Source: Torpedo marmorata
Lineage: Eukaryota
Direction: 5' to 3'
Assembly (NCBI GenBank): GCA_977017645.1
Contig: OZ360242.1
Coordinates: forward strand, 28,582,001-28,646,000
DNA length: 64,000 nucleotides
Shown: in pieces, positions 1,934 through 64,000 of the stretch
Numbering within the stretch: position 1 is the stretch's first letter
Layout: every line of letters starts with the position of its first letter
The notes under the pieces: model-generated
Told to the model about the DNA's origin: nothing
Seen by the model: the letters and a program-made list of their open reading frames with translations, nothing else
The model's database searches: none
Position numbers and translations under genes: made by a program

Positions 1934-2089
1934 ATCTCGTGTCTCTTGGTTGAACCGATCCACAAATTCTGCCAGGTTTTGGATGGGTTGGTAATTCATT
2001 AACACCACGGTCAGTAAGTCGTTGTCATCGAGGAACCCAGGCCTGCTCAACAAATCAGCCAAATCGCTGGGAGCTGTGGCTTTTAATGC
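1934..2089 (-). CDS. Exon C13
   Basis: 156 nt, phase 0->0, [22 protein letters not shown]...FNQETRD; same length and phases as B13. Confidence 0.87.
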
Positions 2090-5000
2090 CTGAGAATGGA
2101 CAATTGAGAAAATATTTTGAGGCAAACATATAAAGACAGTAAATGTAGAACCGGGACAAGCTGAAACATACTTCAACAGAATTTATTCACAATCCAAATG
2201 AAATAGATATATTGTGCCCTTGGCTTAAAAAAACACTATTTGGATAGAGTTTCTGCTCCTTTACATCAGCATAATTAGTGCAGAATTGGATTGGCCAGTG
2301 AAAAAGATCAGCAAATTTACAATGAAAGCAGACTTTGTCCAGAAGCAATAATATTCAATCATTTCATAGATTAGTTATGATAATTGAATACATTCATTCA
2401 AATCAAACCCCATCTATGAACTAGCAACATCCTCCAGCTTAATGCTGTATAAGTCCATGAGGCTTTTAAATTCTGATTTCTCAGATACATTCCTAGTTTT
2501 GAAAAATCAAAATCCAATTCATCAAGAAGTTGACAGATGTAATAGATGTTTTAGTTGTGTTTTATTACATTTATTTTCAATTATTTTAAATGAGTTTATA
2601 CTTAGGTAAAGGCCTGGAGACTCATCAGAAATGCTCATATTTTGTATTGAATACATTTCTGATTACATTAATAAAATTACTCCAAGTTATCATTCTTGAA
2701 TACATTGGTATTTCTCTTGGTGATACCTTGCAGAGCACTGATTCCTTATGACACTCTTGCTCCTCCTGTCCAAACACACAGAGGTGCATACTATACTTCA
2801 TAAAAGGGCATTTATTTGGGCTGTGAGTTCACTGTTGCTGTGCTGGGAATTTGGAGTGAACCCTTGCCCTCCCGAATGCTGTACCCTGTGGTGTTGGGTA
2901 CCTTACATGAGCCTCTACTTTCTCTGCTGCTGTGCACTGCTGTGTCAGGAACCTGGTGTTAACCCTTGCATTCCTCTGGAGCTCTTCCAGTAAAGAATCA
3001 CCCACAGTTCTGTGTGAAGAGCAAGAGTTATGTAGGCCAGAGCAAGTGTGTAGCTGCTCAGCACAATGATATGGGGTTCAGGACAGTATCCTGGATGCAA
3101 AGTGGATGTGAGAGTGCTAGAGATGGGCAGTGCCTGCTTCAGATGTTGATAGACATCTACAGCCTCCCTCATCACCTCCTCGGATCTGAAGAAAGCTGAT
3201 GTCTCCCCCTCACTGATTGTCTGCACATCTAAGAAGTTGTTATCATAGAGAAACTTAAACTCGAACTGGGAACATAGTTATTTTTCATAATGAGTATTGC
3301 GCAAACATGTCACATTTGCTTCACAATTACATTGTTATATGGGAAGTTTGAGTAGAAACTGAGCCAAACCACAACTTCAATCAAATATTGGAAACTGATG
3401 GCATTCACAAATGCTCATTGACACATAAACATGGACACACCTCTTGTGTGCAGTTTATATTGCCAGCCCCCAGACTGGAAGAAGGCTCCTTCACAGGCAC
3501 AAGCATCATAACTTGACCAGCACAACCCATCCTTGACCCTGTCCCATCCTTCACATCGAGATGCCCACTGTTTTTACCTCATTAATCTGGATGGAAGCAG
3601 TCAAGAATGCAACATCAGACAGAGTTAGAAATTCAGCGAAGTTTTGTAACTGGCTGTTCAGGTAAAGGACAAAGCTGTTATTTTCATAGCAGCTAAGAGG
3701 TAATGCTGGGGAACAAAAAAAAAAAGCAGTAAATATTTAGTTTGCTTTCCAAACAATGACCAACTCATAAAGACACCAGTAAAACACAAAAGTCTGCAGA
3801 CACTGTGATTGAAGTAAAAACACAATACTGGAGAAACTCAGCAGGTCAAACAGCATACTTTATAAAGCGAAGATAAAGATACATAACTAATGTTTTGATG
3901 AAGGGCTCAAGCCCGAAACATTGGTTATGCACCTTTATCTTTGCAATATAAAGTAAGCTGTTTGACCTGCTGAATTTCTCTAGCATTGTGTCATAAAGAC
4001 ACCAATTCCACTGAACAATTTGTCCAGGATGTCTACAGCTGTTGCGACATAGATCTGAAACAAGTGCAAATTTCCTCATTTAATTTTTAATTTAGAGATA
4101 CAGCATGGTAACAGGCCCATGAGCCTGTGCTGCCCAAATGCACCAATTAATCTACAAACCCTGAATGTTTTTGGAATGTGGGAGGAAACCGGATCACTCG
4201 GAAGAAAACCACACAGGGCACGGGGAGAATGTGCACACACCTTTCAGAAAGTGCCAGATTCAAACCCTTGTTTCAGCTTTGGATAAGCCTTGTCTCCTGT
4301 ATGTCAAATATGGATTGCAAACTTGCAGTTGGAAGTAACATTACCTGTCCATCATTTTAGAAGTTTTAGTGGCTGCAGAACCTTTTAAAAATGTGACCTG
4401 CTTGATGAAATTTAACCCATTTCTTCTGAAGAGGACCGAGAAAAATAAACCCACATGATCAATATTACAGTATAATACTAAGGACTGAGAGCATTATCAG
4501 AGAGTGAGAATGTAGGAAAAACACCCGAGTTCAAACTACCATGAAGACAAACAATGTTCGTACCTTTTGTGTTAACCAATATGGCTTCATATACATTTTC
4601 CTGAACACTCCTGTTTAGCTGTTCTTTGACTGTGCTCAGTGCTGAAATTCTACAAAAAAATAAATTGATGAGATACATGGATCACTATAATGCAATGCAC
4701 AAAACAACGTACATTTCAAAGATTTAAAATTCTGGTTGGGGTTCATGTCATAGGAACAATGACAGGGAATTTTTACTTGGAGGTCATCAGGTATCAGAGG
4801 ACAATTCTGTTCATTAATTTTATTGCATGGAAAATCCAGCAGGCACTAGCACACACACATCAATGCCAACAACAAAAACAAACACTAAATCCATCAGTTC
4901 ACACAGAAAAAAAAATATTTTTCTTGGTAGAATAATAAGGGAAAAGAATAGGAGCATTTTTCTTCCAGAACTGGCTCATTTCTCTGAATATTTTCATTCC

Positions 5001-8000
5001 TAGCAAAGTAATCTTCTGTCGATAAAGCAAAACTCCAAGCTGTCCGTACATTCACAAATCTGGTGCAATCAAACCCCTTTTGGCTTTCAACTCTTCAACC
5101 CCAGTATCTTGTCATGTAAATGCTATATGACAATCTGGACCATTCCCAACTGTGCCTCGTGTTGCAGTGATTTGAGAGCTTCATGTTTCCATTTGCCAGC
5201 AGCAACAACTCAATTGCAATGGAGCACAGGCTTCAAGGCTGCCTTTGACTCGAACTGAGTGCAAAACATTGTGGAGATTAACCAGGAGAGAATCCAGCTG
5301 TTTCAAACAGGAAGCCACCAGGACCAGGCAATGTAAGGAAAAGACCAGTCTTTAATTTCAGATACTCTTCACTGCAACAAAAAGCATTGGTGTCTGGTAT
5401 TAAATTTGATAATTTCCGAGCAACTCAGAACTTACATGATTCGAAGCCCTTCACAGTTCTTGGTGACAAAGATTAAGGGCAATGCATTTTCTGTGAGTCC
5501 TGGAAGTAAATCCTGCAATCTTCTGTCAAACCAGATCTGAAGTTCAGTGTCATTGCCATTTGAAAGAATTGGCTGTGTGCGGTTCAGAATTTCTTGCAGT
5601 AATGTTGATCTGACATCAGGTGTGAAAGTCACATTATTCTGAAAAAAAAGTTCCAGGGATGAGTAATTGTGGATGGGTGAGGAAGGAGATATGGGGCAGG
5701 AAGGGGAGTGGTGGCGTGGGGAAACATATGACTCCAACACAGCAACATCAGCAGCAATGAAAACAGCTTTCACATCAGCCTACTTTGCAGCAAATATATG
5801 CTGCAGAAAATGCTCTAAATTGAGAATTTTCTGACAACACCTTGAAGATCTTTAATTTTATTGAAAGAAAGGCAATAATTCTCTGATGTAATGAACAACC
5901 TAGTAGAATCAAGATTACTGAAGTTTCTCTGACATGCTTGATACTCATGTGATGAATTCAATGTCAGCCTAATGTGAAGTGAAGCAGTGTCCTACCTTGC
6001 GGCTCGCTGTGTTGAACCTTTCGACGAACTGAACCACAGTGTCAGTGGTGATGCTGTTGAAAATCTTCCGAACATCATCAGCATTACGCAATGTTCCACT
6101 CTTACCAGCAAAATCGCCCAGTTGGGAAGGTGTCAATAATTCCACTGCATCAAGCTGTTGAAACAATATTATAACTTCACCCTCTGCTAAGATCAATGCT
6201 CATAGAAATGCAAGTACAAACTGTTCTGTACTTATTTACATTTCATATTATCTTCTACCCATTTGGAATCAGTTGTTTTTAACTGCAAGAATCAGGTCCA
6301 TTGAGGTAGAAAATTCATTTTGGGTCAAAGTTCACTGCGAACAAATCAATGAAAAATTAACCAATGAGAGGCTGAAGGAACTCAGCAGGTCAAGCAACAT
6401 CCGTGGAGAGAAATTGTCAGTTGATGGTCAGGACCCTTTATGAAAGATGAAAATGGGACAGAGAGCTGCTAAAGGGGATGGTAATTATAAACAAACCGTT
6501 TACAAATACCTTCCTGAACAAACTTTTTTTTTTTTTTTTTTTAATAATTTTATTTAATTTTTTAAAATCACAAAATACATATATCAAGAAAATAATATAT
6601 TATTGAAAATACATGTGATATATTTACTACCCCCCCTTCCCACCCTCCCCTCCCCAACCCTCCCACACTATCTAATAAAAAAGAAAATAGAATATAAAAA
6701 TGTTAATTAAAAGGAAAGAAAAAGGTTGAATAATAAAGTTAAGAAAGAAAATTAGTGTTAGTATGAGGAGAAAAAACTATTTCAAGCTAACTCTACTTAT
6801 ATATTGGAGGTTACTTTGTCAGCGGTACTAACTTCTAGAGAATTAATTCATACCCATAATTCTCATATATGGGCTCCAAATTTTCAGAAAGAAATGATAT
6901 TTGTCTCGTAAATTATACGTAATTTTTTCCAATGGTATACACGAGCGTAACTCTGCATGTAATCTATCCAAATTTAAATCTAAATCTGATTTCCAAGTAA
7001 TAGCAATACATTTTTTTGAAATTGCTAACACAATTCGTAAAAATTCTATTTGGTACATATTCAATCTATTTCTAATACTGATTTTTTTAATATCTCCAAA
7101 CAGAAATATCATAGGGTCCATTGGAATCGTAATATTAAGAATTCTATCTAAAAATTCCTTAACTTTAGACCAAAAATTTTTAATTTTCAAACACAACCAT
7201 GTACAATGTACAAAAGAACCTATTTCATCTTTACATCTAAAACACATGTCTGACAATGCCGAATTGAATTTCTTTAATTTTTTAGGTGTTATATATAATT
7301 GATGAAAAAAATTATATTGTACTAATCTATATCTAACATTAATAATCTTAGTCATACTCAATTTACATAATTCTTTCCAGTGTTGTTCATCTATACTAGT
7401 GTTTAGATCTGATTCCCAATTTAATCTAGATTTATGTAGTCCTACTTTAAACATTTTTTTCTGAAGTAGTTTATACATTTGCGATATAAATTTGTTAACA
7501 TTTCCATTAGTAATTAATAACTCTAACCCATCTTGTCTAGGGGATATTAATTGATTCCCTAATTTCTCAACTAAAAATCCTTTAACTTGATAATAAGCCA
7601 AAACTGTATTATCCATTATTCCAAATTTTTCTTTCAATCTAGAAAAAGTAACAAATCTTCCTGCCTCAAAACAATCTTTAATCTTCTTAATTCCTTTTTG
7701 ATACCATAATTTTAAAAATTGATTATCAATAGAAAATGGTAATAATAAATTCTGATATAATGGCATATTTAAAGAAATTAATCCTTTTCGTCCTATTTCA
7801 TTATCTAATTGATTCCAAATTTCCAATAGATGTTTAATAATCGGTGACTTTTTCTTTTTAATCAATAATAATTTAGAATTCCATTTATAAATAATATCTT
7901 CCTTATTTCTTTCTCCTATATTACTCAATTCTATATTAATCCAAGCCGTATTTTTAGTTAAATCAAATAGTTCATTTATAAATTTTAATTGTGCTGCCTT

Positions 8001-11000
8001 ATAATAATATTGGAAATTAGGGAGTTGTAATCCTCCCATTTCGTATTCCCAAGTTAATTTATCCATACTTACTCTTGCCAATTTACCTTTCCATAAAAAC
8101 TTTCTAATAATAATTTTTAAATCTTTAAAAAATTTTTGAGGAATACCAAAAGGTATAGATTGAAAAAGATATTGAACTTTTGGAAAAATATTCATTTTAA
8201 TACAATTCACTCTTCCTATTAAAGTTATGGGTAAATCTTTCCAATTATCCAAATCCTTCTTTATTTTCTGAAATAAAGGTATGTAATTTAATTTATATAA
8301 ATTTTCTAACTTTGTATCCACTTTAACTCCCAAATATTTAATAGCTTCTTTAGTCCATTTAAATTTTGTAACTTCTTTACATTTAGTATAATCTCCTTGA
8401 GATAAAGCCATTATCTCACTTTTATCCGAATTAATTTTATATCCAGATATTTCACCATAATCCCTCAATATTTTATCTAATTGTTGAAGTGATTCAATAG
8501 ATTTTGTCATATATATTAATACATCATCTGCAAACAAACTAATTTTATGCTCTTCTACACCTACTTTTATCCCATTTATATTGATATCTTTCCTAATCAT
8601 TTCCGCCAACGGTTCTATTGCCAATACAAATAAGGCAGGTGACAATGGACATCCTTGTCTTGTTGACCGCGTCAAAGAGAATTTATTCCTGAACAAACTT
8701 TGAACCAAAATAATTAACTGAGGCTTCTGTTTAAAATAATACTCTTCAAGTCAAGCGCCAATATATTTTCTATCCACTCTCTGGTGTTAGCTAAATATAT
8801 CCAAATAAATGTGGCCAAACTGTTTTTTTGAGGAAATCCAAATCATTTGGTTATTTCTGGTGCTGACAGAGCGGTTCCAGCTGCGTGGGGGATTATGGGT
8901 AACGAAGATGGCCATTGATCTGTGTTTTAATTTCGAAGACATGTTTGTGGCGTCGGGAGCTCGGATGGACGGGCGGCCCAGTAAAGGATCCGCGGTCGGG
9001 GCGTTTGGAGCTCCGATGAGTGGATGGCTGGTGCGTCGGGAGCTCGGATGGGCAAGCGGTTGGGGCGTCAGATGGGTGAGCTGTTCCATAAGGATGGGTT
9101 TCCCTTGAATTAGCTAGGACCAGAATCCAAGTAAATACACCAACTAGAGCTGGAAACAAGGCTTTAAACTGAAAATAATGTTGGTGGGGGTGGTAGCAGA
9201 TATGCGCGGCAGGATGAATCCGACTTACGACCAATCCGAGTTACGACCACTCCTTCGGTCCCAATTACGGTCGTAAGTCGAGGACTACCTGCATATTATG
9301 TTTAATATAATAGAGCTGCAAAGTTTGTGAAAATATTCCAGGTCAGTAATTTTGTCTTATTCTTTCTTGCAATTTAAAGTAAATTTAGCAGTTTCAAGTT
9401 TTGTGCTTTTCATTTTTTCCACAAAACATCTGTTTTTTAAAATCGAAGTTGCCAATTTTTTTTAGGGAGGTGCAAGTAGTTGGCCTTGCCGAGGGCGCAA
9501 AATAGTTTGGCACGGGCCCTGGGCATGAGTATGTAGTTTAAAACTCAATGTGCGATCAAATGTGACACCAGGTTGCAAACAATCTGGTTTGGTTTCAGGT
9601 GATTACCAGGAAGAGGGATGAAATTCGTCACTGAGGAATGGAGGTTGTAATGAGCATCAGAGAGGAAAGAGATTAGTGAAGCAATTTTGTGCTTGCTCAT
9701 TCCAAGATGTCAGACAATAAGATGCAAAATCTAGAGAGGTCGTGGTGAAGTAGTCAGTTTGAACATTGAAACAAAAGCTGCACGTACAAATGTTGTTGCC
9801 AACGGCACCAACAAAACAAAGTGGAAAGTGAATAAACCTTTCGACCCCAGAAGTAATAGCTGGAAGTGAAAATATTTACTGGCCATAATAAGAATGGAAC
9901 CAGACAAGTGGTGTCCAGTGCAGGTCATCCAGAGTAGAGAGGTGATGAAAGAATTTGAAGCCGTTAACCACATTACATGGTCCAGACAGGTTGAGATAGG
10001 CAAGGAGGGGTACGCTACCTTTTCCCACAATCACATGGAGTGTTCCCTGGTATGGCAGGAAGGGCATAAACGTAACTGGAAAGATTGTAATTTGTTCCTT
10101 TACTCAGAGATTGAAGGGCTTTTGGACAATTGATTGGTATATGTTTTATAAATCAGCATTCAATCTTTTGAAGCAGAGAAATGTCATAACAAAATTGTGT
10201 AAAATGTATTTAAAGTTGGGTTTTGATTGAAGCTGATGAATCAAACACCAACATGAAAGGTATCAAAAATACTGGAATATTTATATTTAAATTTTCTCTA
10301 CATTAAAGGAAAGACCAACACATTTTATCTTATTACATCAAACTCTGGTCAGATATATTGCATTTTCACCATTTTAGAAGGCCTGGACCAATTCTATAAC
10401 TTACTGGGTTGAAGTCTGGATTCCTCCTGGTTAACATCTCTATCTGAACAAGGGCACTGAACATTCCCCAGTTCTTCAAAAGCCAATCTCTGGATCCATT
10501 AGTATTCCTGATACAACCAGAACCTAGAGGTAAAGGAGATTGCAGATTAGCCATCAATGGCATTTACCAGGAATAGTTCACAGCATCAAACTATTTTTAT
10601 TCTGGAATACTGAGATCAGAAAAGATGTTTTCAATGTTTTGAGGTTACATGATTGAATTTCTCAGCCTTTTAACTTTCAATGCAAATTATTCTTATTTCA
10701 AAACATTAAGACTTTAATCCAGAACTTCTGTCGCTCTCATTTCAGTGGATGTAAATCTATTTTTTCCCCAATAGCCTTTGTAGCTTACCTGTGGTGTCAA
10801 GGTAATGAAGGATCCATACGTTTAGCACGGTCTCTCTTGTCTCCTGTTGCATCTCTCTGAATCCATTACTCAGGCCTTTTACACTAAGTAGATAAATAGT
10901 AACACAGTTATTCACCTGACTTCTAATCAATGGTATAGTTTCATCTGCTGGAGAACAAGTGAGGGAATCTTCATTCAACATGCCTAGCAATCAGCTCGTG

Positions 11001-56000: not shown

Positions 56001-59000
56001 TGGTGATGCTGTTGAAAATCTTCTGAACATCATCAGCATTACGCAATGTTCCATTCTTACCAGCAAAATCGCCCAGTTGGGAAGGTGTCAATAATTCCGC
56101 TGCATCAAGCTGTTGAAACAATATTATAACTTCACCCTCTGCTAAGATCAATGCTCACAGAAATGCAAGTACAAACTGTTCTGTACTTATTTACATTTCA
56201 TGTTATCTTCTACCCATTTGGAATCAGTTGTTTTTAACTGCAAGAATCATTTAGGTAGAAAATTCATTTTGGACCAAAGTTCACTGAGAACAAATCAATG
56301 AAAAATTAACCAATGAGAGAATGAAGGAACTCAGCAGGTCAAGCAACATCCGTGGAGAGAAATAGTCAGTTGATGGTCAGGACCCTTTATGAAAGATGAA
56401 AATGAGCCATAGAGCAAAATGGGATGGTAATTATACACAAACTGTTTACAAATACCTTCCTGGACAAACTTTGAAACAAATGAATTAACTGAAGCTTCTA
56501 TTTAAAATAATACTCTTAATGTCAAGTTTCAATTTATTTTCCATCCACTCTCTGGTTTTTGCTAAATATGTCCAAATCAACATGGGCAAACTGTCTTATT
56601 ATTGAGGAAATCCAATTCATTTGGTGATATTTGGTGCACAGGAAGCAGTTTAGTTAACGTAACATTGAGACAGTTCACAAAGCACGAGCAGTATCCATAT
56701 GTAACTGTATCTCTGATTTAAAGTCAAATTTAAGACTCCAAAAAATAAATGCATCACAGGAATATAACAAAACACTAAAAATTTGGCATGGGGACACAGT
56801 GAGGTATGAGAGAGATCAATAAAGGTTCAGCTGAAGAAGTAAATGTCTTGACAGAAAAAAGCCAGATACACACATGTAGAAATTCATGAAGGTAATGCCA
56901 GTGCTTTGTGCCTTGACAGATGAAGGCAAGGCACAACTATGAATGATCCAGCAGTTCCATTAAGGAAAATCCAGCGACAGTGGCCACCTCAGAGAGCTCC
57001 ATGTGGAAGAAGGGAGGGACAAGACCATGGAGTTTGAACAAAAAGAACAATAATTCTGGGATCGAGCCAGTTCAGAAGAGCAAGCACAGGACTGACATGA
57101 ATTTAACAAGATTGATGATGTAGCGTGGATAAACAAGTTTACAAAAGTAGAATGAGGAAAGCCAGTGTACTGAAACAGCTGTCTGGAGTTAACAGAGGCA
57201 AGGAGGTGAGGCAAGGCTGGAAATGGGTGGTGTTATGAAGGTGGAAATGAGCGGTCTCAGTGCTGGCATGAGTATGAAGTTTAAAACTCAACGTGCGATC
57301 AAATGTGACAGGAAGATTGCAAACAATCTGGTTTGGTTTCAGGTGGTTTCCAGGAAGAGGGATCAAATTAATAACTGAGGAATGGAGGTTGAAATTAGCA
57401 TCAGAGAGGAAGGAGATAAGTTAAGCAAACTTTTGCTTGCTCACTCCAAGATGTCAGACAATAAGATGCAAAATCAAGAGAGGTCATGGTGAACTAGTCA
57501 GTTTGCACATTGAAAGAAAAATTGCACGTACAAATGTTGTTGCCAACGCCCCAAATAGATGAAAAAACAAGTTACAAGAGAATAAACATTTGGACACCAG
57601 AAATAACAGCTGGAAGAGAAGTTAGTCTCTCGCCATAATAAGAATGGAACCAGACAAGTGGTGTCCAGAGTAGAGGTGATGAAAGAACATGAAGCCGTTA
57701 ACCACATTACATGGTCCAGACAGGTTGAGATAGGCAAGGAGGGGTACGCTACCTTTCCCCACAATCACATGGAGTGTTCCCTGGTATGGCAGGAAGGGCA
57801 TAAACGTAACTGGAAAGATTGTAATTTGTTCCTTTACTCAGAGATTGAAGGGCTTTTGGACAATTGATTGGTATATGTTTTATAAATCAGCATTCAATCT
57901 TTTGAAGCAGAGAAACGTCGTAACAAAATTGTGTAAAATGTATTTAAAGTTGGGTTTTGATTGAAGATGATGAATCAAACACCAACACAAAAGGTATAAA
58001 AATAATGGAGTATTTATATGTAATTTTTCTCTACATTAAAGGACAGACCAACACATTTTATCTTATTACATCAAACTCTGGTCAGAAATATTGTATTTTC
58101 ACCATTTTAGAAGGCCTGGACCAATTCTATAACTTACTGGGTTGAAGTCTGGATTCCTCCTGGTTAACATCTCTATCTGAACAAGGGCACTGAACATTCC
58201 CCAGTTCTTCAAAAGCCAATCTCTGGATCCATTAGTATTCCTGATACAACCAGAACCTAGAGGTAAAGGAGATTGCAGATTAGCCATCAATGGCATTTAC
58301 CAGGAATAGTTCACAGCATCAAACTATTTTTATTCTGGAATACTGAGATCAGAAGATGTTTCAATGTTTTGAGGTTACATGATTGAATTTCTCAGCCTTT
58401 TAACTTTCAATCCAAATTATTCTTAGTTCAATACATTAAGACTTTAATCCAGAACTTCTGTCGCTCTCATTTCAGTGGATGTAAATCTATTTTTTCCCCC
58501 TAAAGCCTTTGTAGCTTACCTGTGGTATCAAGGTAATGAAGGATCCATATGTTTAGCACAGTCTCTCTTGTCTCCTGTTGCATCTCTCTGAATCCATTAC
58601 TCAGACCTTTTACACTAAGTAGATAAATAGTAACAAAATTATTCATCTGACTTCTAATCAATGGTATTGTTTCATCTGCTGGAGAACAAGTGAGGGAATC
58701 TTCATTCAACATGCCTAGCAATCAGCTCCTGTGTACAAGACATAAAATTGATCTAAACTTTTCTCCCATTTTGATGAATGGTTCACAAAGATAAATCCAC
58801 CATCAACAGTGATGCCCCTTGAGAATTGAAATCTATATAGCAGTATTCAGTGGCCTCTTTATTGGGTGCCTCTCTTCCATTTAGCTTTTCCAAGATCAAT
58901 AGGAATACATCTAATGCAATACTCAAACATACATTACGAATCTGGTTCCAATTTAGGAAATATTTTAATTTAAAAAACTTTGTCTTATCTAGTGCTATCT

Positions 59001-62000
59001 CTCATAACTATTTTTTTCGACCATCAATAAATGATCAATTTTTCTCTATATGGAACATCAAAGGTATTGTTTCTTTTGCAAATTTATTTAAGGAAGGTTG
59101 TTTAATGTCTTTTGAACAGCTTGCAAGTAAATATGACTTACCAAATACTCATTTTTTAAAGATATTTACAGATTAGAAATTTTTTAAATATCATATTACG
59201 GGATTTTCCATTTATATATCCACCAGATTTAGTTGATAATATTTTTCAATTGAATCCTTCTTAGAAAGGATTAATTGGAATTATATATGATAGATTATTA
59301 AAATTACGTCCAGTACTCCATGATAAGATTAAAAAGGCTTGGGAACTGGAATCTATGGGACAAGATTTTTAAATTGGTAAATACATCTTCTATATGTGCC
59401 CGACATTCATTAATCCAATTCAAAGTGGTGCATCGTGTTCACATGTCCAAAGATAAATTGGCTAGTATTTTTTCTAATATTAACCCTATTTGTGACAGAT
59501 GCAAATCTGAAATTGCTACATTGACACATATGTTTTGGTCTTGTTCATCCTTAGAAAACTATTGGAAAGAAATTTTTAATATCTTTTCAACTATACTCCA
59601 GGTGGAGCTACGACCCAATCCAGTAACTGCTCTTTTCGGGGTTATTGACCCAGACATAGGAAGTTTTTCTGTACCTGTTCAACGGGTTGTGGCTTTCTCT
59701 ACATTGTTGGCTAGAAGAGCCATCCTATTCAAATGGAAAGACTGGACCTCCAACAGTGTTTCAATGGTTTTCTCATATTATGTCTTGTTTCAGCTTAGAA
59801 AAAATTAGATATCATGCACTTGATTCATCGGTGAAATTTGAAGATACGTGGCGACCTTTTATGTCTTATTTTCATATGATGTATGTGTTTCTAATGTGAT
59901 TAGATGTATTTACTCTTCCTTTGTTTTTTGATTTACGGTAGGAACCAAGTTACAAAATATATATAACTTTCAGGAAATGCTGCTCAGCTGTTTTATGTTA
60001 GTTGTTTTTTTTATTAGAGTAGGTTAGGTGTTTTTTTAAAAAATATATATATATAAAACACTTTTGATGTTTTTTTGTCATTGCCACCTATTGCAGTGGA
60101 GGGGGAATCTAATTTATACTGTTTGAAGTTTTATTTTAATATATATACATATGTGATATTGTATTTTCAATTTTGTTCCCTTTTCTTCATTGTATTGTAT
60201 TTCTTATAAAAATCAATAAAAATGATTGAAAAAGAAAAAGAATAGTGATGCCCCATTGATCTAGCATCAAATTGTGATGTGGAACTTTGTTGAGCCTGTA
60301 CAGGGCACTTCGTCTCCAGTCTGCTTCCTGATTTTATGCTTCTATGTTTTGATGCTGCCTTTCCAATTCAAACTGTAGAAGAGGATTATTCTGAAAGAGA
60401 ATCCTTCACTTACATTGCCTGGTAACCATCACAAGTAATGTTCCTTGTCCGCAAAGGTTTTAGCACGAACTGGGAAATGCCAGCAATGAATGTCCTGAAT
60501 CGCTCCTGGAACCACATTCTCAGGAAGGTGACGCTCGTTAGGTTTTCAAAGGTCTTCACAGTCTCCCAAAGTGCATTCATAAATGTGATCTTTGTCATCA
60601 GGGGAATTGATGATCGGTTTGGAAACTGAAAAAAAAAAAAGGATTGTGTTTAAACTCAGTAAACAAAGAGCTGTTTTGTCACCACAGATCTCAAACGTGA
60701 TCCTTCCCTTTATAAGAGAACTCAGTAAATTGTATAAAATGAAATTATGAAGGAAAATCAATGGCCGACACCTGTTACTGTTTATGTCTTCAGTGGAATC
60801 ATACAAGTGTAAGAAACAAAGCACATATTCAGCCAGTACATTGTATGATGGCTAATATTTTGTGATGAGTGAATGCCAAGCGTACGGCATTCAGTGACGG
60901 GTTGTTTTGGAATGGTACGGTGACCCATTCCAAAACTAATTCCCATATTGGTTCAAGAATAATTTGTTGGCTGAAATGTGCCTTGGGATGGGATGTTGTG
61001 AAGTTATTAAAGATCACTTTTCCCTTATTTTAGTTCCTGCCAAAGAAATGGCACATATTTAGTGGGTAATTTTTGCGCACTATTCAAGGCAAAAAAAAAC
61101 TCTCAATTGGATGGATAGTTAATTTATTTCCTGACCAATTTTGTTATGTCAATAGAAAGTGTGAAGTGATGCATGTTGGGAAGTTAAAACAGAGCACGAC
61201 ATACACAGTGAATGGCATGGCCCTGGGGATTGTTGTTAGAGACGCTTTGGGATATAAGTACATTATTCCTTGAAAGTGACAACACAGGGAGACAAGGTGA
61301 CGTAGAAAGTTTATGGCCTCCTTGCCTTCATTGACTGAGACATTAAATGTTGGGACATCATGCTCCAATTGTACAAAAAGTTTGTTAGGCTGCTCTTGGA
61401 GTATTGTGTCCGGTTCTGGTCACCACACTAAAGGTAAGATGTGATTAAGTTGGAGACGGTGCAAAAAGATTCACAAAGATGTCGCCTGGATTTAAAGGTT
61501 TGAGTTATCAGGATAGGCTAGGTCTGTTTTCGCTGGATTAAAGGAGGCCGAAAGGTGACTCGAGAGAGGTAAATAAAATTACGTGAGGCATAGATAGTCA
61601 GATTATGTTTCCCATGGAAGGTGTGTCAAAAAATAAGTAGTTACCTGGTTGTTGAATTTGTCGAGGGCCTCGGTCAGGGTGGTTCTGTTAAGTTTCCGAA
61701 CAAAAATGGTCAGTGCACTTTCATCTGACCTGTTCAAAGCTTTTGGACCAGTGAAACAATGAAACACATCTGCCAGGTCATCACTGCTTAAACTGGAGAC
61801 GAGTCGATCAGCCTGAAAAGAAATTCATATCAAAAGATATTTGTTAGCTTGAAGCACTCCATTATTTTGATGTAAAATATTGGCAAGTGTCTCAATTCTT
61901 TTAGCCATAAAAAAAAACAGCTGGAGAAACTTTGTGAGCCGTGCAGCATCCATGGGGGAAAGGATGTGTCGACGTTTTGGAACGATTTCCTGCATCAGCA

Positions 62001-63539
62001 CCTGATGCAGAGACTCATCCTGAAATATCAGTGATTTCTTTACCCCACAGATGCTGAGAACCCCCAGCAATTTTTTGCTTCACATTCCAACATGTGCAGC
62101 CTTACATCTTGACTCATTTCTTTGAATAATCTGTGTAAAATGTATTTATTACAACTGTTAAAATGACATCATAATACAGAAATGCCTAAACTTACGGTTT
62201 TGTGTGAAAGACTGACTGATGAGAAGCTTACCTCAGCACATGCATAGTCAGTAACGTTGAAGTTGCAGAGCTGACTCACATTAATATTGAGCAGGAAAGT
62301 CTTCAAAGCTGAACTACAGGGAGAAAAGGTGATCTATTCTTAGGAAAGATGTTACTGTGAGTAACAAATAGTCAAACAGATTCTTTCCGACCATTTATAT
62401 CTCACAATTTGAGGTTAATAATATGTGATTTAAGTATTCAATATTACTAAGTAATACACAACAAAATATTTTGAATATCTGCCATGTCAGGAGATATCAT
62501 TCACTGACGCATTGACAGAATCTGTGAAACTGCACAGAAAAGATGTATTGAATTCTTACCTGTCTATTGCTCTACACAATGTAGTTTCTGTATGAGGAAT
62601 TAAAAAGAAATAATTTTATTACATTGGAATTAAAATACTAGAACTAGTCAAGTTATAAAATAATGTAGAAAATACACTTACCATTAACTGTGGTATTACC
62701 AGGCTAAGGAATAGAAATAATAAGAACTTTAATGCCGAATCATCTTAAATTAACACACAATGGTGGTAACATTCAAATATTGTTGGAAGTATTGAGTAAT
62801 TATTTAATCAATTACTTTTCCTTAATCTACAACATTTAAAAAATATCGGCTATATAGATAAGAATTATAAAAATTAAACGCTGCAAAAACAAACAAGAAA
62901 GTATACTGAAAATTGACATTCGGAAAATATAGTGTTGAGATTTTCTTACTTTGTTGTCAATTTCAGGTTCTGTAAAAAAAAAAAAGAAGCACAACAATGT
63001 CAGAAGATGCTCGAGCTGGCATGTTATTAAACTTAATCAAATCACATCATTGTAATAAATTACACTCACAATTATGACTTAAATCAATATTGGAATCAAC
63101 ATTTGTTTTGATAAGATCATCTTGTCCCACAGTACAATCTGTTCACAACTGAATTTTGACCTGTACTGTTCCCTACAACTGTGGAATTTAGCCTGTTAAA
63201 GCATCCATTACCACCCTGAGGATAAAGGCACCAATCTTTCATCTAACATCAAATTGTGCAATGCACACAAAGTAGCAGCAGAGCCAAAACTCCAGAACTA
63301 TGAGTTATCAGCTGGAGACTATATTGAAGGATTTGAAGACAAAATTTGACTGATATTGAACACTTTGGCAAGAAATTACCTGATGAATTATTTGGAATAC
63401 CTCCTGTCAGGCCAAGTTTGCTCACTTCAGACTCACTGTGTGAGGCCACCCAAACCCTGACTACAGTTTCATTCTCTCCACTTTGCAAAGCGCGAAGGTG
63501 ATATCCAAGCAAATTGATTAGAGTTTCAGCACTCAGTTT
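1934..63539 (-). CDS. Giant multi-unit mesothelin-like (mesothelin/otoancorin/stereocilin family) gene, partial; 48 exons in window, open at both ends
   Basis: Manually spliced GT-AG exon chain with matching phases and no in-frame stop. Exons B26-B34 read like mesothelin: [13 protein letters not shown]|FPSSWS; [19 protein letters not shown]; [17 protein letters not shown]; [22 protein letters not shown]; LGLTGGIPN. Units are named A (right edge), B (complete) and C (left). Confidence 0.88.
3578..3705 (-). CDS. Exon C12
   Basis: 128 nt, phase 1->0, [43 protein letters not shown]; same length and phases as B12. Confidence 0.86.
3780..3990. mobile_element. Penelope-like pseudo-LTR hairpin with hammerhead-like core
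   Basis: ~75-bp inverted arms (ctggagaaactcagcaggtcaaacagc...gctgtttgacctgctgaatttctctag) around TTGATGAA-GGGC-TCAA-GCCC-GAAAC. Confidence 0.65.
4084..4270 (-). mobile_element. V-SINE (HE1-like), 5'-truncated; counterpart at ~53849-54035
   Basis: Reverse complement of the V-domain motif (gggaggaaaccgga...cacggggagaa) and a 3' A-tail. Confidence 0.75.
4564..4649 (-). CDS. Exon C11
   Basis: 86 nt, phase 2->1, [29 protein letters not shown]. Confidence 0.85.
5436..5638 (-). CDS. Exon C10
   Basis: 203 nt, phase 0->2, [14 protein letters not shown]...NCEGLRI. Confidence 0.88.
5996..6154 (-). CDS. Exon C9
   Basis: 159 nt, phase 0->0, [12 protein letters not shown]...FNTASRK. Confidence 0.88.
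6527..8685 (-). mobile_element. L1 LINE, 5'-truncated, young
   Basis: Uninterrupted ORF2 3' half (QGCPLSP, FADD, YLG, CxxC..HxxxxC), poly(A) tail, TSD ttcctgaacaaacttt at 6511-6526 and 8686-8701. Confidence 0.95.
8870..9291. mobile_element. Tc1/mariner (Tigger/pogo-like) transposon end
   Basis: Terminal cgtaagtcgaggactacctg (reverse complement CAGGTAGTCCTCGACTTACG) with subterminal (c/g)ttacgacca repeats; only one TIR found. Confidence 0.6.
10405..10523 (-). CDS. Exon C8
   Basis: 119 nt, phase 1->0, same peptide as B8. Confidence 0.88.
10789..10883 (-). CDS. Exon C7
   Basis: 95 nt, phase 2->1, IVKGLSNGF...[13 protein letters not shown]. Confidence 0.87.
11245..11456 (-). CDS. Exon C6
   Basis: 212 nt, phase 0->2, same peptide as B6. 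Confidence 0.88.
11960..12440 (+). mobile_element. Degenerate CR1 LINE 3' fragment; counterpart at ~61150-61630
   Basis: Remnants of KCEVMH.G, LEYCV.FW and VQKRFT.M.PG motifs. Confidence 0.75.
12454..12621 (-). CDS. Exon C5
   Basis: 168 nt, phase 0->0, same peptide as B5. Confidence 0.87.
12720..12920. mobile_element. Penelope-like pseudo-LTR hairpin; counterpart at ~61910-62110
   Basis: ctggagaaact...gcagcatc arm and inverted cctgcatcag/ctgatgcag centre with degenerate CTGATG..GAAA cores. Confidence 0.55.
13041..13122 (-). CDS. Exon C4
   Basis: 82 nt, phase 2->0, same peptide as B4. Confidence 0.85.
13369..13396 (-). CDS. Microexon C3
   Basis: 28 nt, phase 1->2, ETTLCRAID. Confidence 0.75.
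13491..13512 (-). CDS. Microexon C2
   Basis: 22 nt, phase 0->1, PGNITVN. Confidence 0.75.
13760..13779 (-). CDS. Microexon C1
   Basis: 20 nt, phase 1->0, EPEIDNK. Confidence 0.75.
14189..14348 (-). CDS. Exon B34
   Basis: 160 nt, phase 0->1, [12 protein letters not shown]...[14 protein letters not shown]. Confidence 0.88.
14500..15095 (+). mobile_element. Unclassified interspersed element containing a 41-42-bp tandem repeat x3 (14629-14750)
   Basis: GC-rich body with repeated ccacac/taggctgtgggctgctgg; ends gacaataat..aactttgaacctt like a non-LTR tail; counterpart from ~63690. Confidence 0.5.
15519..15613 (-). CDS. Exon B33
   Basis: 95 nt, phase 1->0, [32 protein letters not shown]. Confidence 0.9.
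16356..16489 (-). CDS. Exon B32
   Basis: 134 nt, phase 2->1, [23 protein letters not shown]...YFQLIKSYV. Confidence 0.9.
16920..17620 (-). mobile_element. Penelope-like element 3' remnant
   Basis: Minus strand encodes [13 protein letters not shown] (end of GIY-YIG ORF), followed by a pyrimidine-rich UTR and pseudo-LTR. Confidence 0.7.
17891..18018 (-). CDS. Exon B31
   Basis: 128 nt, phase 0->2, [42 protein letters not shown]. Confidence 0.89.
18378..18524 (-). CDS. Exon B30
   Basis: 147 nt, phase 0->0, [18 protein letters not shown]...[14 protein letters not shown]...NIT. Confidence 0.9.
19152..19345 (+). mobile_element. V-SINE, internally deleted
   Basis: ggagtttgtacgtt...ctgcgtgtgtttcctctggtgccccagtttcctccca V-domain. 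Confidence 0.75.
20165..20805 (+). mobile_element. Penelope-like element, GIY-YIG C-terminal remnant with inverted 5' pseudo-LTR
   Basis: [38 protein letters not shown]; terminal inverted ggagaaactcagcagg...cctgctgagtttctcc; hammerhead-like core at 20714-20740. Confidence 0.8.
20829..21007 (-). CDS. Exon B29
   Basis: 179 nt, phase 1->0, [11 protein letters not shown]...QLDLCLSD...[11 protein letters not shown]. Confidence 0.9.
21609..21860. repeat. ~250-bp direct repeat, copy 1 (copy 2 at 25805-26059), flanking the L1
   Basis: aagtagaaa..gatttcaggaatatt...aaataaattc on both sides of the L1, with a few substitutions and indels. Confidence 0.93.
21861..25804 (+). mobile_element. L1 LINE, 5'-truncated, frameshifted ORF2 (APE endonuclease, RT, CCHC)
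   Basis: NIYAPN, GGDFN, SRIDLF, SDH, DAEKAF, QGCPLSP, FADD, CFRC..HSTWLC; A-rich tail near 25790-25804. Confidence 0.95.
26572..26692 (-). CDS. Exon B28
   Basis: 121 nt, phase 0->1, [40 protein letters not shown]. Confidence 0.8.
27237..27324 (-). CDS. Exon B27
   Basis: 88 nt, phase 2->0, [30 protein letters not shown]. Confidence 0.88.
27968..28161 (-). CDS. Exon B26
   Basis: 194 nt, phase 0->2, [25 protein letters not shown]...LKKC...SGASKY. Confidence 0.9.
28552..28681 (-). CDS. Exon B25
   Basis: 130 nt, phase 2->0, [26 protein letters not shown]...AKTCL. Confidence 0.89.
28844..29062. mobile_element. Tc1/mariner-type MITE
   Basis: TIRs cagtaaaacccctggtatc / gataactggggttttaatg with TA on both sides. 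Confidence 0.8.
29529..29611 (-). CDS. Exon B24
   Basis: 83 nt, phase 0->2, [27 protein letters not shown] (cf. mesothelin LRCLAHRL..LDALPLDLLLF). Confidence 0.87.
30035..30155 (-). CDS. Exon B23
   Basis: 121 nt, phase 2->0, [16 protein letters not shown]...VALDESQ. Confidence 0.89.
30352..33313 (-). mobile_element. Gypsy LTR retrotransposon 1, internally deleted (gag, protease, partial integrase; RT and most of RNase H missing)
   Basis: LTRs 33136-33313 and 30352-30526; PBS tggtaccaggagtgg; PPT ggaaagggga; FKLDTGA protease; HEGHLG..C..C and DLF/SDNG integrase motifs. Confidence 0.93.
33560..33745. mobile_element. Penelope-like pseudo-LTR fragments
   Basis: actcagcaggcc... and cttgaaaagagttcaggcccgaaatgtc...acctgctgagtttctccag. 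Confidence 0.55.
34024..34070 (-). CDS. Exon B22
   Basis: 47 nt, phase 0->2, [15 protein letters not shown]; ttccacag acceptor, gtgagc donor. Confidence 0.8.
34180..34375. mobile_element. Penelope-like pseudo-LTR hairpin
   Basis: tcagcaggtcagacagcatcc...ggatgctgtctgacctgctga inverted arms; minus-strand TTGATAAA-GGGT-TTCC-ACTC-GAAAC. Confidence 0.6.
34580..34717 (-). CDS. Exon B21
   Basis: 138 nt, phase 0->0, [17 protein letters not shown]...NNKEWTPSQ. Confidence 0.87.
34835..35005 (-). CDS. Exon B20
   Basis: 171 nt, phase 0->0, [19 protein letters not shown]...ICVLQ; AAG acceptor. Confidence 0.85.
35680..35892 (-). CDS. Exon B19
   Basis: 213 nt, phase 0->0, [10 protein letters not shown]...[13 protein letters not shown]...EGWNVGQA...SGYQ. 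Confidence 0.9.
35995..36172 (-). CDS. Exon B18
   Basis: 178 nt, phase 2->0, [16 protein letters not shown]...PTDEQLK. Confidence 0.86.
36456..36709 (+). mobile_element. V-SINE (HE1-like), full length
   Basis: tRNA-like head with B box gttcgaatcc, V-domain, 3' tail ggcctgataccgtgctgtat followed by an A run. Confidence 0.88.
36900..38228 (-). mobile_element. Rex1/Babar-clade LINE, 5'-truncated, RT nearly intact
   Basis: 385-aa ORF: [52 protein letters not shown]. Confidence 0.9.
38433..38687 (-). mobile_element. V-SINE (HE1-like), full length
   Basis: Reverse-complement homologue of 36456-36709. Confidence 0.88.
38912..40712 (-). mobile_element. CR1 LINE, 5'-truncated, frameshifted RT
   Basis: [59 protein letters not shown]. 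Confidence 0.93.
40813..40937 (-). CDS. Exon B17
   Basis: 125 nt, phase 0->2, [19 protein letters not shown]...NPNFNAS. Confidence 0.85.
41264..41491. mobile_element. hAT-like MITE (degenerate)
   Basis: Imperfect TIRs cagccattctcaa / tttaaaatggttg, internal gggggcca repeats, 5/8 match between 8-bp flanks. Confidence 0.45.
41986..42119 (-). CDS. Exon B16
   Basis: 134 nt, phase 1->0, [28 protein letters not shown]...NEAL. Confidence 0.87.
43115..43203 (-). CDS. Exon B15
   Basis: 89 nt, phase 2->1, [30 protein letters not shown]; weak donor gtggag. Confidence 0.78.
44040..44285 (+). mobile_element. CR1 3' fragment
   Basis: acagagagagtggtgggtgcctggaatgcattgcca (..[10 protein letters not shown]) and CR1-type tail. 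Confidence 0.65.
44457..44644 (-). CDS. Exon B14
   Basis: 188 nt, phase 0->2, [15 protein letters not shown]...[14 protein letters not shown]...PCLPYRR. Confidence 0.8.
45040..45520 (-). mobile_element. CR1 LINE 3' end
   Basis: [30 protein letters not shown] end and tandem ctattg tail. Confidence 0.88.
45736..45891 (-). CDS. Exon B13
   Basis: 156 nt, phase 0->0, [22 protein letters not shown]...FANATRD. Confidence 0.88.
46877..52110 (+). mobile_element. Gypsy LTR retrotransposon 2 (gag, protease, RT; RNase H and integrase deleted), 3' LTR interrupted by L1
   Basis: 5' LTR 46877-47054 (TG..CA); PBS 47055-47072; PPT 49389-49398; 3' LTR 49399-49533 plus 52068-52110; 5-bp TSD AGGAC; YIDD RT motif. 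Confidence 0.95.
49534..52051 (+). mobile_element. L1 LINE with inverted 5' segment (49534-~50216 minus; ~50217-52051 plus)
   Basis: 16-bp TSD aaagtatagttgttat at 49518-49533 and 52052-52067; minus ORF2 piece [14 protein letters not shown]; plus piece INSDKSE..WSPY. Confidence 0.93.
53257..53384 (-). CDS. Exon B12
   Basis: 128 nt, phase 1->0, [43 protein letters not shown]. Confidence 0.87.
54334..54419 (-). CDS. Exon B11
   Basis: 86 nt, phase 2->1, [29 protein letters not shown]. Confidence 0.85.
54766..55000 (-). mobile_element. Solo LTR (235 bp)
   Basis: TG...CA ends, 5-bp TSD CTGTC, empty site at 5040-5044 in the other repeat copy; AATAAA on minus strand. Confidence 0.88.
55382..55584 (-). 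CDS. Exon B10
   Basis: 203 nt, phase 0->2, [14 protein letters not shown]...[14 protein letters not shown]...NCEGLQI. Confidence 0.88.
55951..56109 (-). CDS. Exon B9
   Basis: 159 nt, phase 0->0, [22 protein letters not shown]...FNIASRK. Confidence 0.88.
56930..57480 (-). mobile_element. Ancient L2-like LINE fragment (partial counterpart ~9525-9760)
   Basis: [26 protein letters not shown] resembles the L2 RT C-terminus; highly decayed. Confidence 0.45.
58138..58256 (-). CDS. Exon B8
   Basis: 119 nt, phase 1->0, [40 protein letters not shown]. Confidence 0.88.
58520..58614 (-). CDS. Exon B7
   Basis: 95 nt, phase 2->1, [32 protein letters not shown]. Confidence 0.87.
58819..60240 (+). mobile_element. 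L1 LINE 3' fragment, different subfamily, degenerate
   Basis: [18 protein letters not shown] zinc knuckle, A-rich tail, TSD aa(c/t)agtgatgcccc at 58805-58818 and 60241-60254; empty site near 11072-11085. Confidence 0.92.
60414..60625 (-). CDS. Exon B6
   Basis: 212 nt, phase 0->2, [12 protein letters not shown]...[11 protein letters not shown]...NITCDGYQA. Confidence 0.88.
61645..61812 (-). CDS. Exon B5
   Basis: 168 nt, phase 0->0, [24 protein letters not shown]...ALDKFNNQ. Confidence 0.87.
62232..62313 (-). CDS. Exon B4
   Basis: 82 nt, phase 2->0, [28 protein letters not shown]. Confidence 0.85.
62560..62587 (-). CDS. Microexon B3
   Basis: 28 nt, phase 1->2, ETTLCRAID; catacag acceptor, gtaaga donor. 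Confidence 0.75.
62682..62703 (-). CDS. Microexon B2
   Basis: 22 nt, phase 0->1, PGNTTVN; ttccttag acceptor, gtaagt donor. Confidence 0.75.
62950..62969 (-). CDS. Microexon B1
   Basis: 20 nt, phase 1->0, EPEIDNK; poly-T+acag acceptor, gtaaga donor. Confidence 0.75.
63380..63539 (-). CDS. Exon A34 (last exon of previous unit)
   Basis: 160 nt, phase 0->1, [53 protein letters not shown]; ttttcag acceptor, gtaatt donor. Confidence 0.88.
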
Positions 63540-64000
63540 CTGAAAATAAATAAACATTTAATGAACGACAACCACAGCAAAATATTTTGTACTTTATCTT
63601 GACTTTCATTTCATCTGGATAAATGGATAGAGATTAAAAAAATGGGATGTTGGATTTGAATAAGCTTTCAGGATGCAATATTTTGAGTCGCTCAGCAAAA
63701 GGCTCACATCGGGCACCAGAAACGGGGAGAACATCCCCCGTTGAGAAGGAGAAGCATAGGAGATGACCCTACAGAAAGGTGACCATGGCAGCGGACCAGC
63801 GAGGGGCTCAGTGGCTGTAGGACCCACATAGGCTATGGGCCGCTGGAGACTTGCGGTCAAAGTATCCACACAGGCTGGGGGCTGCTGGTGACTTGCGTCG
63901 AAGGACCCACACAAGCTGGGGGCTGCTGGGGACTGGTTCCAAGGAACCAGGCATTAGAACCTGGATTCGGGAGGGTGCTGAAGCCAAGAAGAGCCCCCGA

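Follow-up and report, generated by a model that had tools for sequence, protein, structure and literature searches.

The window, the whole stretch of 64,000 nucleotides from Torpedo marmorata analysed in this study, is proposed to be the middle part of one giant mesothelin-family gene on the minus strand. The gene is read as seven units in a single frame, giving one message of ~34 kb and a GPI-anchored precursor of ~11,300 aa, for which furin cleavage is predicted only in the last two units. The probability of this reading is put at about 0.65.

Exon Structure of the Window

The whole window was rebuilt independently of an earlier note on this DNA. Unit exons were found by scoring candidates and by phase closure, with an approximate splice weight matrix. 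Between 63539 and 1934, 48 minus-strand exons were obtained, all with AG/GT boundaries, closing phases and no stop. They form the window's share of the gene (1934-63539), which extends past both window ends. The alternative acceptors 58678 and 21088 and longer donors were ruled out by phase or by homologue alignment. The 34-exon unit from 62969 to 14189 sums to 4,341 nt (1,447 codons) with the exon 33 donor at 15519, which the homologue-guided run chose over 15525 (a unit of 4,335 nt). The LGLTGGIPN exon has two minus-strand copies in the window, at 63416 and 14225, which are 49,191 bp apart. Each is followed by an intron of 409–410 bp and then by frame-keeping exons of 20, 22, 28, and 82 nt. 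Thus, the earlier note was right about the 48 phase-matched exons, about the unit of 4341 nt and 1447 codons (with the homologue-favoured donor), and about in-frame next-unit exons within ~410 bp of both LGLTGGIPN copies. Its repeat of ~49.2 kb holds for the two window copies and is refined to a period of 48.1–49.2 kb.

All features of the gene in the window lie on the minus strand. The last exon of unit 4 (U4 exon 34; 63380-63539; 160 nt, phase 0 to 1) closes the mesothelin-like ectodomain. The U4-to-U5 linker (62232-62969) consists of exons at 62969-62950 (20 nt), 62703-62682 (22 nt), 62587-62560 (28 nt), and 62313-62232 (82 nt), which match gene exons 2–5 (23, 22, 28, and 82 nt) in length and phase. 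The N-terminal cap and ~200-aa helical repeats of U5 are carried by exons 5–17 (40813-61812), of which exons 5–11 are at 61812-61645, 60625-60414, 58614-58520, 58256-58138, 56109-55951, 55584-55382, and 54419-54334, and exons 12–17 at 53384-53257, 45891-45736, 44644-44457, 43203-43115, 42119-41986, and 40937-40813. The lead-in to the MPF-like half of the mesothelin precursor, and that half itself, are encoded by exons 18–28 (26572-36172): exons 18–23 at 36172-35995, 35892-35680, 35005-34835, 34717-34580, 34070-34024, and 30155-30035, and exons 24–28 at 29611-29529, 28681-28552, 28161-27968, 27324-27237, and 26692-26572. Exon 28 (26572-26692) covers the position of the mesothelin furin site and has the sequon SNNTA there, without R-x-x-R. 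Exons 29–34 (14189-21007) encode the mature-mesothelin-like module, at 21007-20829, 18524-18378, 18018-17891, 16489-16356, 15613-15519, and 14348-14189. After an intron of 409 bp, the U5-to-U6 linker (13041-13779) follows with exons at 13779-13760, 13512-13491, 13396-13369, and 13122-13041. The window then holds U6 exons 5–13 (1934-12621), at 12621-12454, 11456-11245, 10883-10789, 10523-10405, 6154-5996, 5638-5436, 4649-4564, 3705-3578, and 2089-1934. A very high-copy interspersed repeat of ~560 bp is present at 14520-15087, in the intron before exon 34, with a summed contig depth of >100,000 in one run.

The repeat pattern is beyond chance. In a self-comparison of the window, 4018-14809 recurred at 53787-64000 with offsets of 47.7–50.0 kb and 84–97% identity. 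The 211-bp LGLTGGIPN exon gave four matches of 99–100% spaced 48–49 kb apart and one diverged match, all on the same contig of this 6.2-Gb genome, and exon-wise tblastn over 664 kb found seven copies of exon 34. U5 and U4 differed at 22 of 4,341 exon bases and at 1,004 of 44,008 intron bases, a 4-fold lower difference in exons. U6 was near-identical to U5 over the first 11 exons only (95.5% aa) and 54% identical thereafter, and U6 beyond exon 11 is an old paralogous unit relative to U5. The fall in U6-U5 similarity from ~95% to ~55–60% at exons 11–12 points to a crossover zone there.

Model of the Whole Gene

The modelled gene has 261 exons over 469,266 bp (~469 kb), with 33,909 nt encoding 11,302 aa in seven units. 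It runs on the minus strand of the window's own contig (G000:C56) from ~28,921,976 down to 28,452,711. The first exon (~28,921,976) has 64 nt with an ATG, a phase-1 donor and the only signal-peptide-like stretch. The terminal exon (28,452,711) has 101 nt with a phase-1 acceptor, a GPI-signal-like tail and the only stop. Units U1 to U7 measure 2417, 1614, 1446, 1447, 1447, 1438, and 1461 aa. The calculated mass is 1,261 kDa, with 306 N-glycosylation sequons. Modelling of the diverged units was guided by the Narcine and Pristis predictions, with hand placement of 35 boundaries, so that agreement of the model with those two predictions is not independent. Two GC donors were used, at G000:C56 ~28,811,561 and 28,505,215, one of which is the exon-34 donor of U1, skipping to a 28-nt micro-exon.

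The 664 kb around the window contained no N gaps. Exon-wise tblastn over this region gave no further units flanking the seven, and a search of the same region gave no match to a second, plus-strand mesothelin gene. In the model, only exon 34 of unit 7 splices to a hydrophobic-tail exon with a stop and a polyA signal. In a Kyte-Doolittle scan, two of the three most hydrophobic windows were terminal (residues 6 and 11,280), and the strongest single one was internal (1.93, residue 11,099); the signal- and GPI-like ends are called from this hydrophobicity and from likeness to homologue ends only. The earlier note had proposed whole gene bodies joined head-to-tail in one frame, with at least three units and over 4000 aa. 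The single 33,909-nt open reading frame agrees with the former, and its seven units and 11,302 aa exceed the latter. The extension past the window that it had called for gave a single signal-peptide-like exon and a single GPI-like tail in the 664 kb. The product is likely to be a long, GPI-anchored, cell-surface precursor of about 11,300 aa.

Joining of the Units and Origin of the Repeat

Judged from the sequence, a single long message spliced across all units is very probable. The six junction introns measure 287, 408, 384, 410, 409, and 1,338 bp. No ATG-started exon with a phase-1 donor was found in the five of them that were scanned, and no polyA signal was found in the four short junction introns scanned. 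The 41-aa U6/U7 junction peptide was identical at 29–35 of 41 positions in all nine shark and ray models and at 23 in the chimaera. The U5/U6 junction peptide was identical at 27–36 of 41 positions in seven of the nine shark and ray models; in Amblyraja and Hypanus its best match was 20/41, to the other junction type. The dN/dS ratio was 0.12–0.51 in all 21 unit pairs, and exons were 2–4.5 times less diverged than introns between units. All seven units are intact, and purifying selection acts on each of them. Two sequencing runs aligned to 10300-18700 of the window gave intron-covering, DNA-like contigs from a related organism, mostly of 90–95% identity; those listed had no splice joints and are neutral on splicing.

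The start of the gene has exons of 64 nt (phase 0 to 1), 23, 22, 28, and 82 nt, and all units end in phase 1. At five of the six junctions the next unit opens with exons of 20, 22, 28, and 82 nt, and U2 opens at the 28-nt exon. The body bounded by two phase-1 introns, one following the signal exon and the other preceding the anchor exon, would therefore be a symmetric 1-1 module, and because of this symmetry its duplication adds a unit in frame. U3–U5 are 99% identical in protein, with U3 and U4 at 99.8% over exons 12–34. They match U2 at 97% over exons 12–34 and U6 at 95.5% over exons 1–11 (U5 tested), and U1, U6, and U7 are otherwise 40–58% identical. This mosaic identity is the pattern expected from unequal crossing-over between U2 and U6 in a four-unit gene. 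A four-unit, sawfish-like layout may thus have gained three near-identical hybrid units, each with the 5′ half of U6 and the 3′ half of U2. The sawfish (Pristis) model has exactly the four non-hybrid units. Retroelement-like open frames are present in introns at 49548-52060, 21898-25373, 36913-40473, and 30354-33313 of the window, and we take these to be reverse-transcriptase-like or otherwise retroelement-like. The piece at 49.5–52 kb is found in U5 and is absent at the same place in U3 and U4, reflecting either an insertion after the duplication or a deletion.

Two other explanations concern the existence and the number of the units. If the units were separate tandem genes or pseudogenes, the in-frame join would be a by-product of duplication. 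This would fit the several RefSeq LOC numbers at the stingray locus, which is split into three genes (LOC132398983/4/5); the Narcine and Heptranchias loci are likewise split into at least two RefSeq models each, and most pieces begin or end mid-unit. It is contradicted by the single signal exon and single terminal exon found in 664 kb, by the short junction introns (287–1,338 bp; the five scanned lack a start exon), by linker peptides kept across sharks, rays and chimaera, and by the intactness and purifying selection of all units. Separate genes are therefore considered highly improbable. An assembly artefact, in which U3–U5 partly represent haplotypes placed in tandem, so that the real unit count is four to six, is hardly more probable. 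The 99.8% protein identity of U3 and U4 over exons 12–34 speaks for it. Against it stand the gap-free 664 kb, the 2.3% of intron bases, together with insertions, that set U5 apart from U3 and U4, and a Narcine model that also has at least three near-identical internal units. Such an artefact would touch unit number only.

Family Assignment, Fold and Locus

Three of 12 single window exons matched PF06060, one above the cut-off; U5 exon 26 matched profile positions 178–236. All nine homologue proteins scanned scored far above the cut-off. A genome search with PF06060, a strict first look that gives no paralogue count, returned three matches, all within this gene. Weak Pfam matches to CdiA_helical, Spectrin_2, GM_CSF, CSTF1_dimer, and FtsH_ext were below their cut-offs and were discarded. 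The last ~550 aa of each unit match the mesothelin precursor (PDB sequence match, E 5e-24). The N-terminal part of a unit has a cap and two or more ~200-aa repeats, with ~seven repeats in U1.

The structure of a junction-spanning skate homologue (P0010), used in place of the window's own spliced protein, was predicted by AlphaFold from a 40-row alignment of uneven quality. The model was all-helical with a mean pLDDT of 78.6, and residues 318–323 at the junction formed a 6-residue low-confidence linker. Its pTM was only 0.49, too low to establish the overall rod shape. The top structural matches were to mesothelin (Foldseek, E 5e-8; VIA, Z 14.8, rmsd 4.5, 200 aligned), and the remaining ones were generic HEAT/ARM solenoids. 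VIA matches of the N-terminal repeats to CID and TOG had Z <8 and were set aside as generic helical.

An RPUSD1 exon lies ~142 kb upstream of the gene (E 2e-18 to 5VBB), and a PF02906 Fe-hydrogenase-like gene lies ~55 kb downstream, at which NARFL and NARF were not told apart. A second PF02906 gene, presumably the NARF/NARFL paralogue, is at G000:C53:41,565,392-41,587,086. The gene order CHTF18, RPUSD1, MSLN, NARFL is given for chicken (PMC12159700), and PMC4632335 was uninformative on gene order. With RPUSD1 on one side and a NARFL-type gene on the other, the gene is placed at the mesothelin locus, and this synteny directs the assignment away from otoancorin and stereocilin. Together, profile, fold, site and synteny assign the gene to the mesothelin family.

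Processing Sites and Predicted Fate of the Product

The human mesothelin precursor is described as being cut by furin into MPF and GPI-anchored MSLN (PMC10035497). At the corresponding position U7 has RRSKR and U6 has a minimal RRFTR, while U1–U5 are without R-x-x-R and U2–U5 carry SNNTA. This model and nine shark and ray models were compared. A strict R-x-K/R-R site was found in eight of ten penultimate units (R-x-x-R in the other two) and in eight of ten last units (R-x-x-R in one, neither in one, that of the stingray). Among the upstream units listed, from which the first Scyliorhinus unit is absent, none of 22 had either furin-type motif. Some upstream shark units carry RRR or RGR, which are candidate sites for other convertases.

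Since the sites are kept in the last two units and absent upstream, cleavage is predicted to separate most of the chain from its anchor. By analogy with the division of mesothelin into a shed MPF and an anchored part, it would give an N-terminal piece of ~9,500 aa (~1,062 kDa before glycans), an all-helical solenoid, together with a middle piece of ~1,450 aa and an anchored mesothelin of ~300 aa. The large piece, long, multivalent and heavily glycosylated, would serve outside the cell as a binder or matrix component, and its length and valency would follow unit number.

The earlier note had suggested a possible tether or adhesive filament. An anchored tether would likewise start from a real giant precursor, left uncut or with its pieces stacked non-covalently. 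A layer of a helical solenoid measures ~1 nm. At this height and with nine layers per ~300 aa (PMC10035497), the rod would reach ~0.3 micrometre. One anchor, the all-helical model and the short linkers would suit it, as would the proposal that stereocilin and otoancorin attach cells to acellular gels (PMC2628672) and the retention of the catshark homologue described below after washing of the sperm pellet. Nevertheless, nearly all ten models conserve basic sites in their last two units, and 22 upstream units have none; this is hard to explain if the sites are unused, which counts against a tether. It is considered unlikely, and shedding is predicted in its place. A further proposal accepts the long message and supposes read-through of the exon-34 donor in units 2–5, giving short, GPI-anchored tethers graded from two to five units and free of furin sites. 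In all four copies, U2–U5, this donor is indeed followed by 43 open codons that close with a hydrophobic stretch and a stop (minus strand; 14060-14188 for U5, with the U4 equivalent at 63251-63379). The four copies share one recent origin and therefore count once; similar tails occurred by chance at three of 256 other donors, and the polyA signal is absent from the four introns. Likeness to the true tail was not significant, as 684 of 2,000 shuffles scored as high; the U5 stretch includes an Arg, and U1 and U6 have no tail. The read-through tail is probably due to chance, and graded tethers are quite improbable. From the distribution of the sites, a shed solenoid of ~1 MDa with an ordinary anchored mesothelin is more likely than an intact tether.

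Possible Site of Action

A catshark homologue, scyTo_0003439 (P0019, 3,482 aa), was quantified as 'Mesothelin-like protein' in washed spermatozoa (PMC11083954, Table 2 and S2). Its entry there has no peptide positions, and its fold change has an FDR of 0.214 (PMC11083954). These data show that some part of a family protein is present in shark semen; public catshark semen data are PXD046348 and PXD046350. MSLNL has been reported as epididymis-specific in human (PMC7436996), in quail seminal foam (PMC12853081), and in mouse olfactory neurons (PMC4295871). A lectin-like role has been proposed for the mesothelin superfamily (PMC2628672). A possible role in the male genital tract, as secreted matrix or sperm coat, may be taken as the best lead.

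A more far-reaching interpretation is a poly-mesothelin of cartilaginous fishes that would be one of the largest secreted-pathway proteins known. Its upstream furin sites would have been replaced by glycosylation sites, and a lectin-like solenoid of ~1 MDa and ~0.3 micrometre would be released as a structural cross-linker of a sperm-carrying matrix. Its length would vary between species through 49-kb unequal crossovers, and mammalian mesothelin and MSLNL would be the truncated tail of this older, long protein. This interpretation is speculative, with the odds clearly against it as a whole.

Novelty and Significance

Searches of openly available full-text papers turned up no account of multi-unit mesothelins, the phase 1-1 mechanism or the furin pattern. 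The earlier note knew of no description of the architecture; this stands as regards the papers searched, and the layout is already latent, unnamed, in automatic databases of public gene predictions. The normal function of mesothelin, a major target in cancer, is described as unclear (PMC10035497). Non-mammalian vertebrate mesothelins are long and repeat-built, and sharks and rays multiply the whole gene body in frame. This suggests that the ancestral protein served a structural purpose or bound multivalently, with the human one left as a remnant. A symmetric module of ~1,450 aa, 34 exons and 49 kb is here shuffled like a single exon, with its processing site kept or lost by position.

Comparison with Known Systems

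The closest counterparts are shark, ray and chimaera models annotated as 'uncharacterized protein' in RefSeq/UniRef. They are orthologous concatemers that share the junction peptides of the ray gene and whose units fall into clades by position, including Pristis LOC127573574 (6,965 aa), Narcine (7,394 aa), Hypanus XP_059834805.1 (5,494 aa), and Callorhinchus XP_007904336.1 (2,646 aa). These automatic models are unnamed and mostly fragments, whereas the ray model is complete and longer than any of the 168 relatives examined. Among these relatives, 14 had two or more whole units, 89 had one, and 65 had none. A search of proteins of 3,021–9,615 aa gave ten matches, of which nine were models from sharks and rays and one was from axolotl. 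Concatemer models complete from signal to tail were those of Pristis (6,965 aa, four units) and axolotl (6,351 aa, three units). The chimaera model has two units, which suggests that the concatemer layout is old.

A tree was built from 68 mature modules with a midpoint root; it had a long lamprey branch and no mammalian sequence. The last units formed one clade including the chimaera (99/99), and penultimate and upstream units formed a second. In Pristiophorus, Heptranchias, Heterodontus, Rhincodon, Hypanus, Narcine, and this ray, upstream copies paired with others of their own species, a sign that expansion or homogenisation occurred repeatedly in separate lineages. The multi-unit models of axolotl, catfish and killifish were each in their own clades.

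Long single-unit mesothelins (lamprey, teleost mslnb, frogs, snakes) are built, like the ray gene, from a signal-peptide-like start, a cap, ~200-aa repeats, an MPF-like part, a mature module and a tail. They differ in how they lengthen: only the cap, the ~200-aa repeat (in up to 32 copies) or both are repeated, in front of one mesothelin block. This long single-unit layout looks like the ancestral vertebrate form. P0032 (7,139 aa), P0033 (5,238 aa), and P0031 (sea bass mslnb, 4,675 aa) have a single mesothelin block and are lengthened by up to 32 ~200-aa repeats or by paired caps and repeats, so that the family has a second way of reaching giant size. Another group (P0141, P0134, P0147, P0129, P0114, P0145, and P0162; ~2,440–2,550 aa; one named from the frog Hyperolius) has a signal-like start, a cap and 11 ~200-aa repeats, with no mesothelin block or hydrophobic tail, and is possibly a separate secreted, repeat-only sister family.

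MSLNL, otoancorin and stereocilin belong to the same superfamily (PMC2628672) and have one mesothelin-homology region each. The mesothelin precursor itself (MSLN; PF06060; PDB 7UED, 8CX3, 7U9J) resembles the ~550-aa block that ends each ray unit. Homologue units cover PF06060 positions ~40–587 and have the same fold, and the furin-type site before the mature module, the GPI-like tail and the RPUSD1-NARFL neighbourhood are shared. However, MSLN is one unit of 622 aa, whereas the ray units add ~850 aa or more of cap and ~200-aa repeats, and the ray gene repeats its unit seven times, with five units lacking the furin site. The layout found was seven units and 11,302 aa, not the single ~620-aa unit of the mammalian type. 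The seven-unit gene is a mesothelin-family member that differs in unit length and number.
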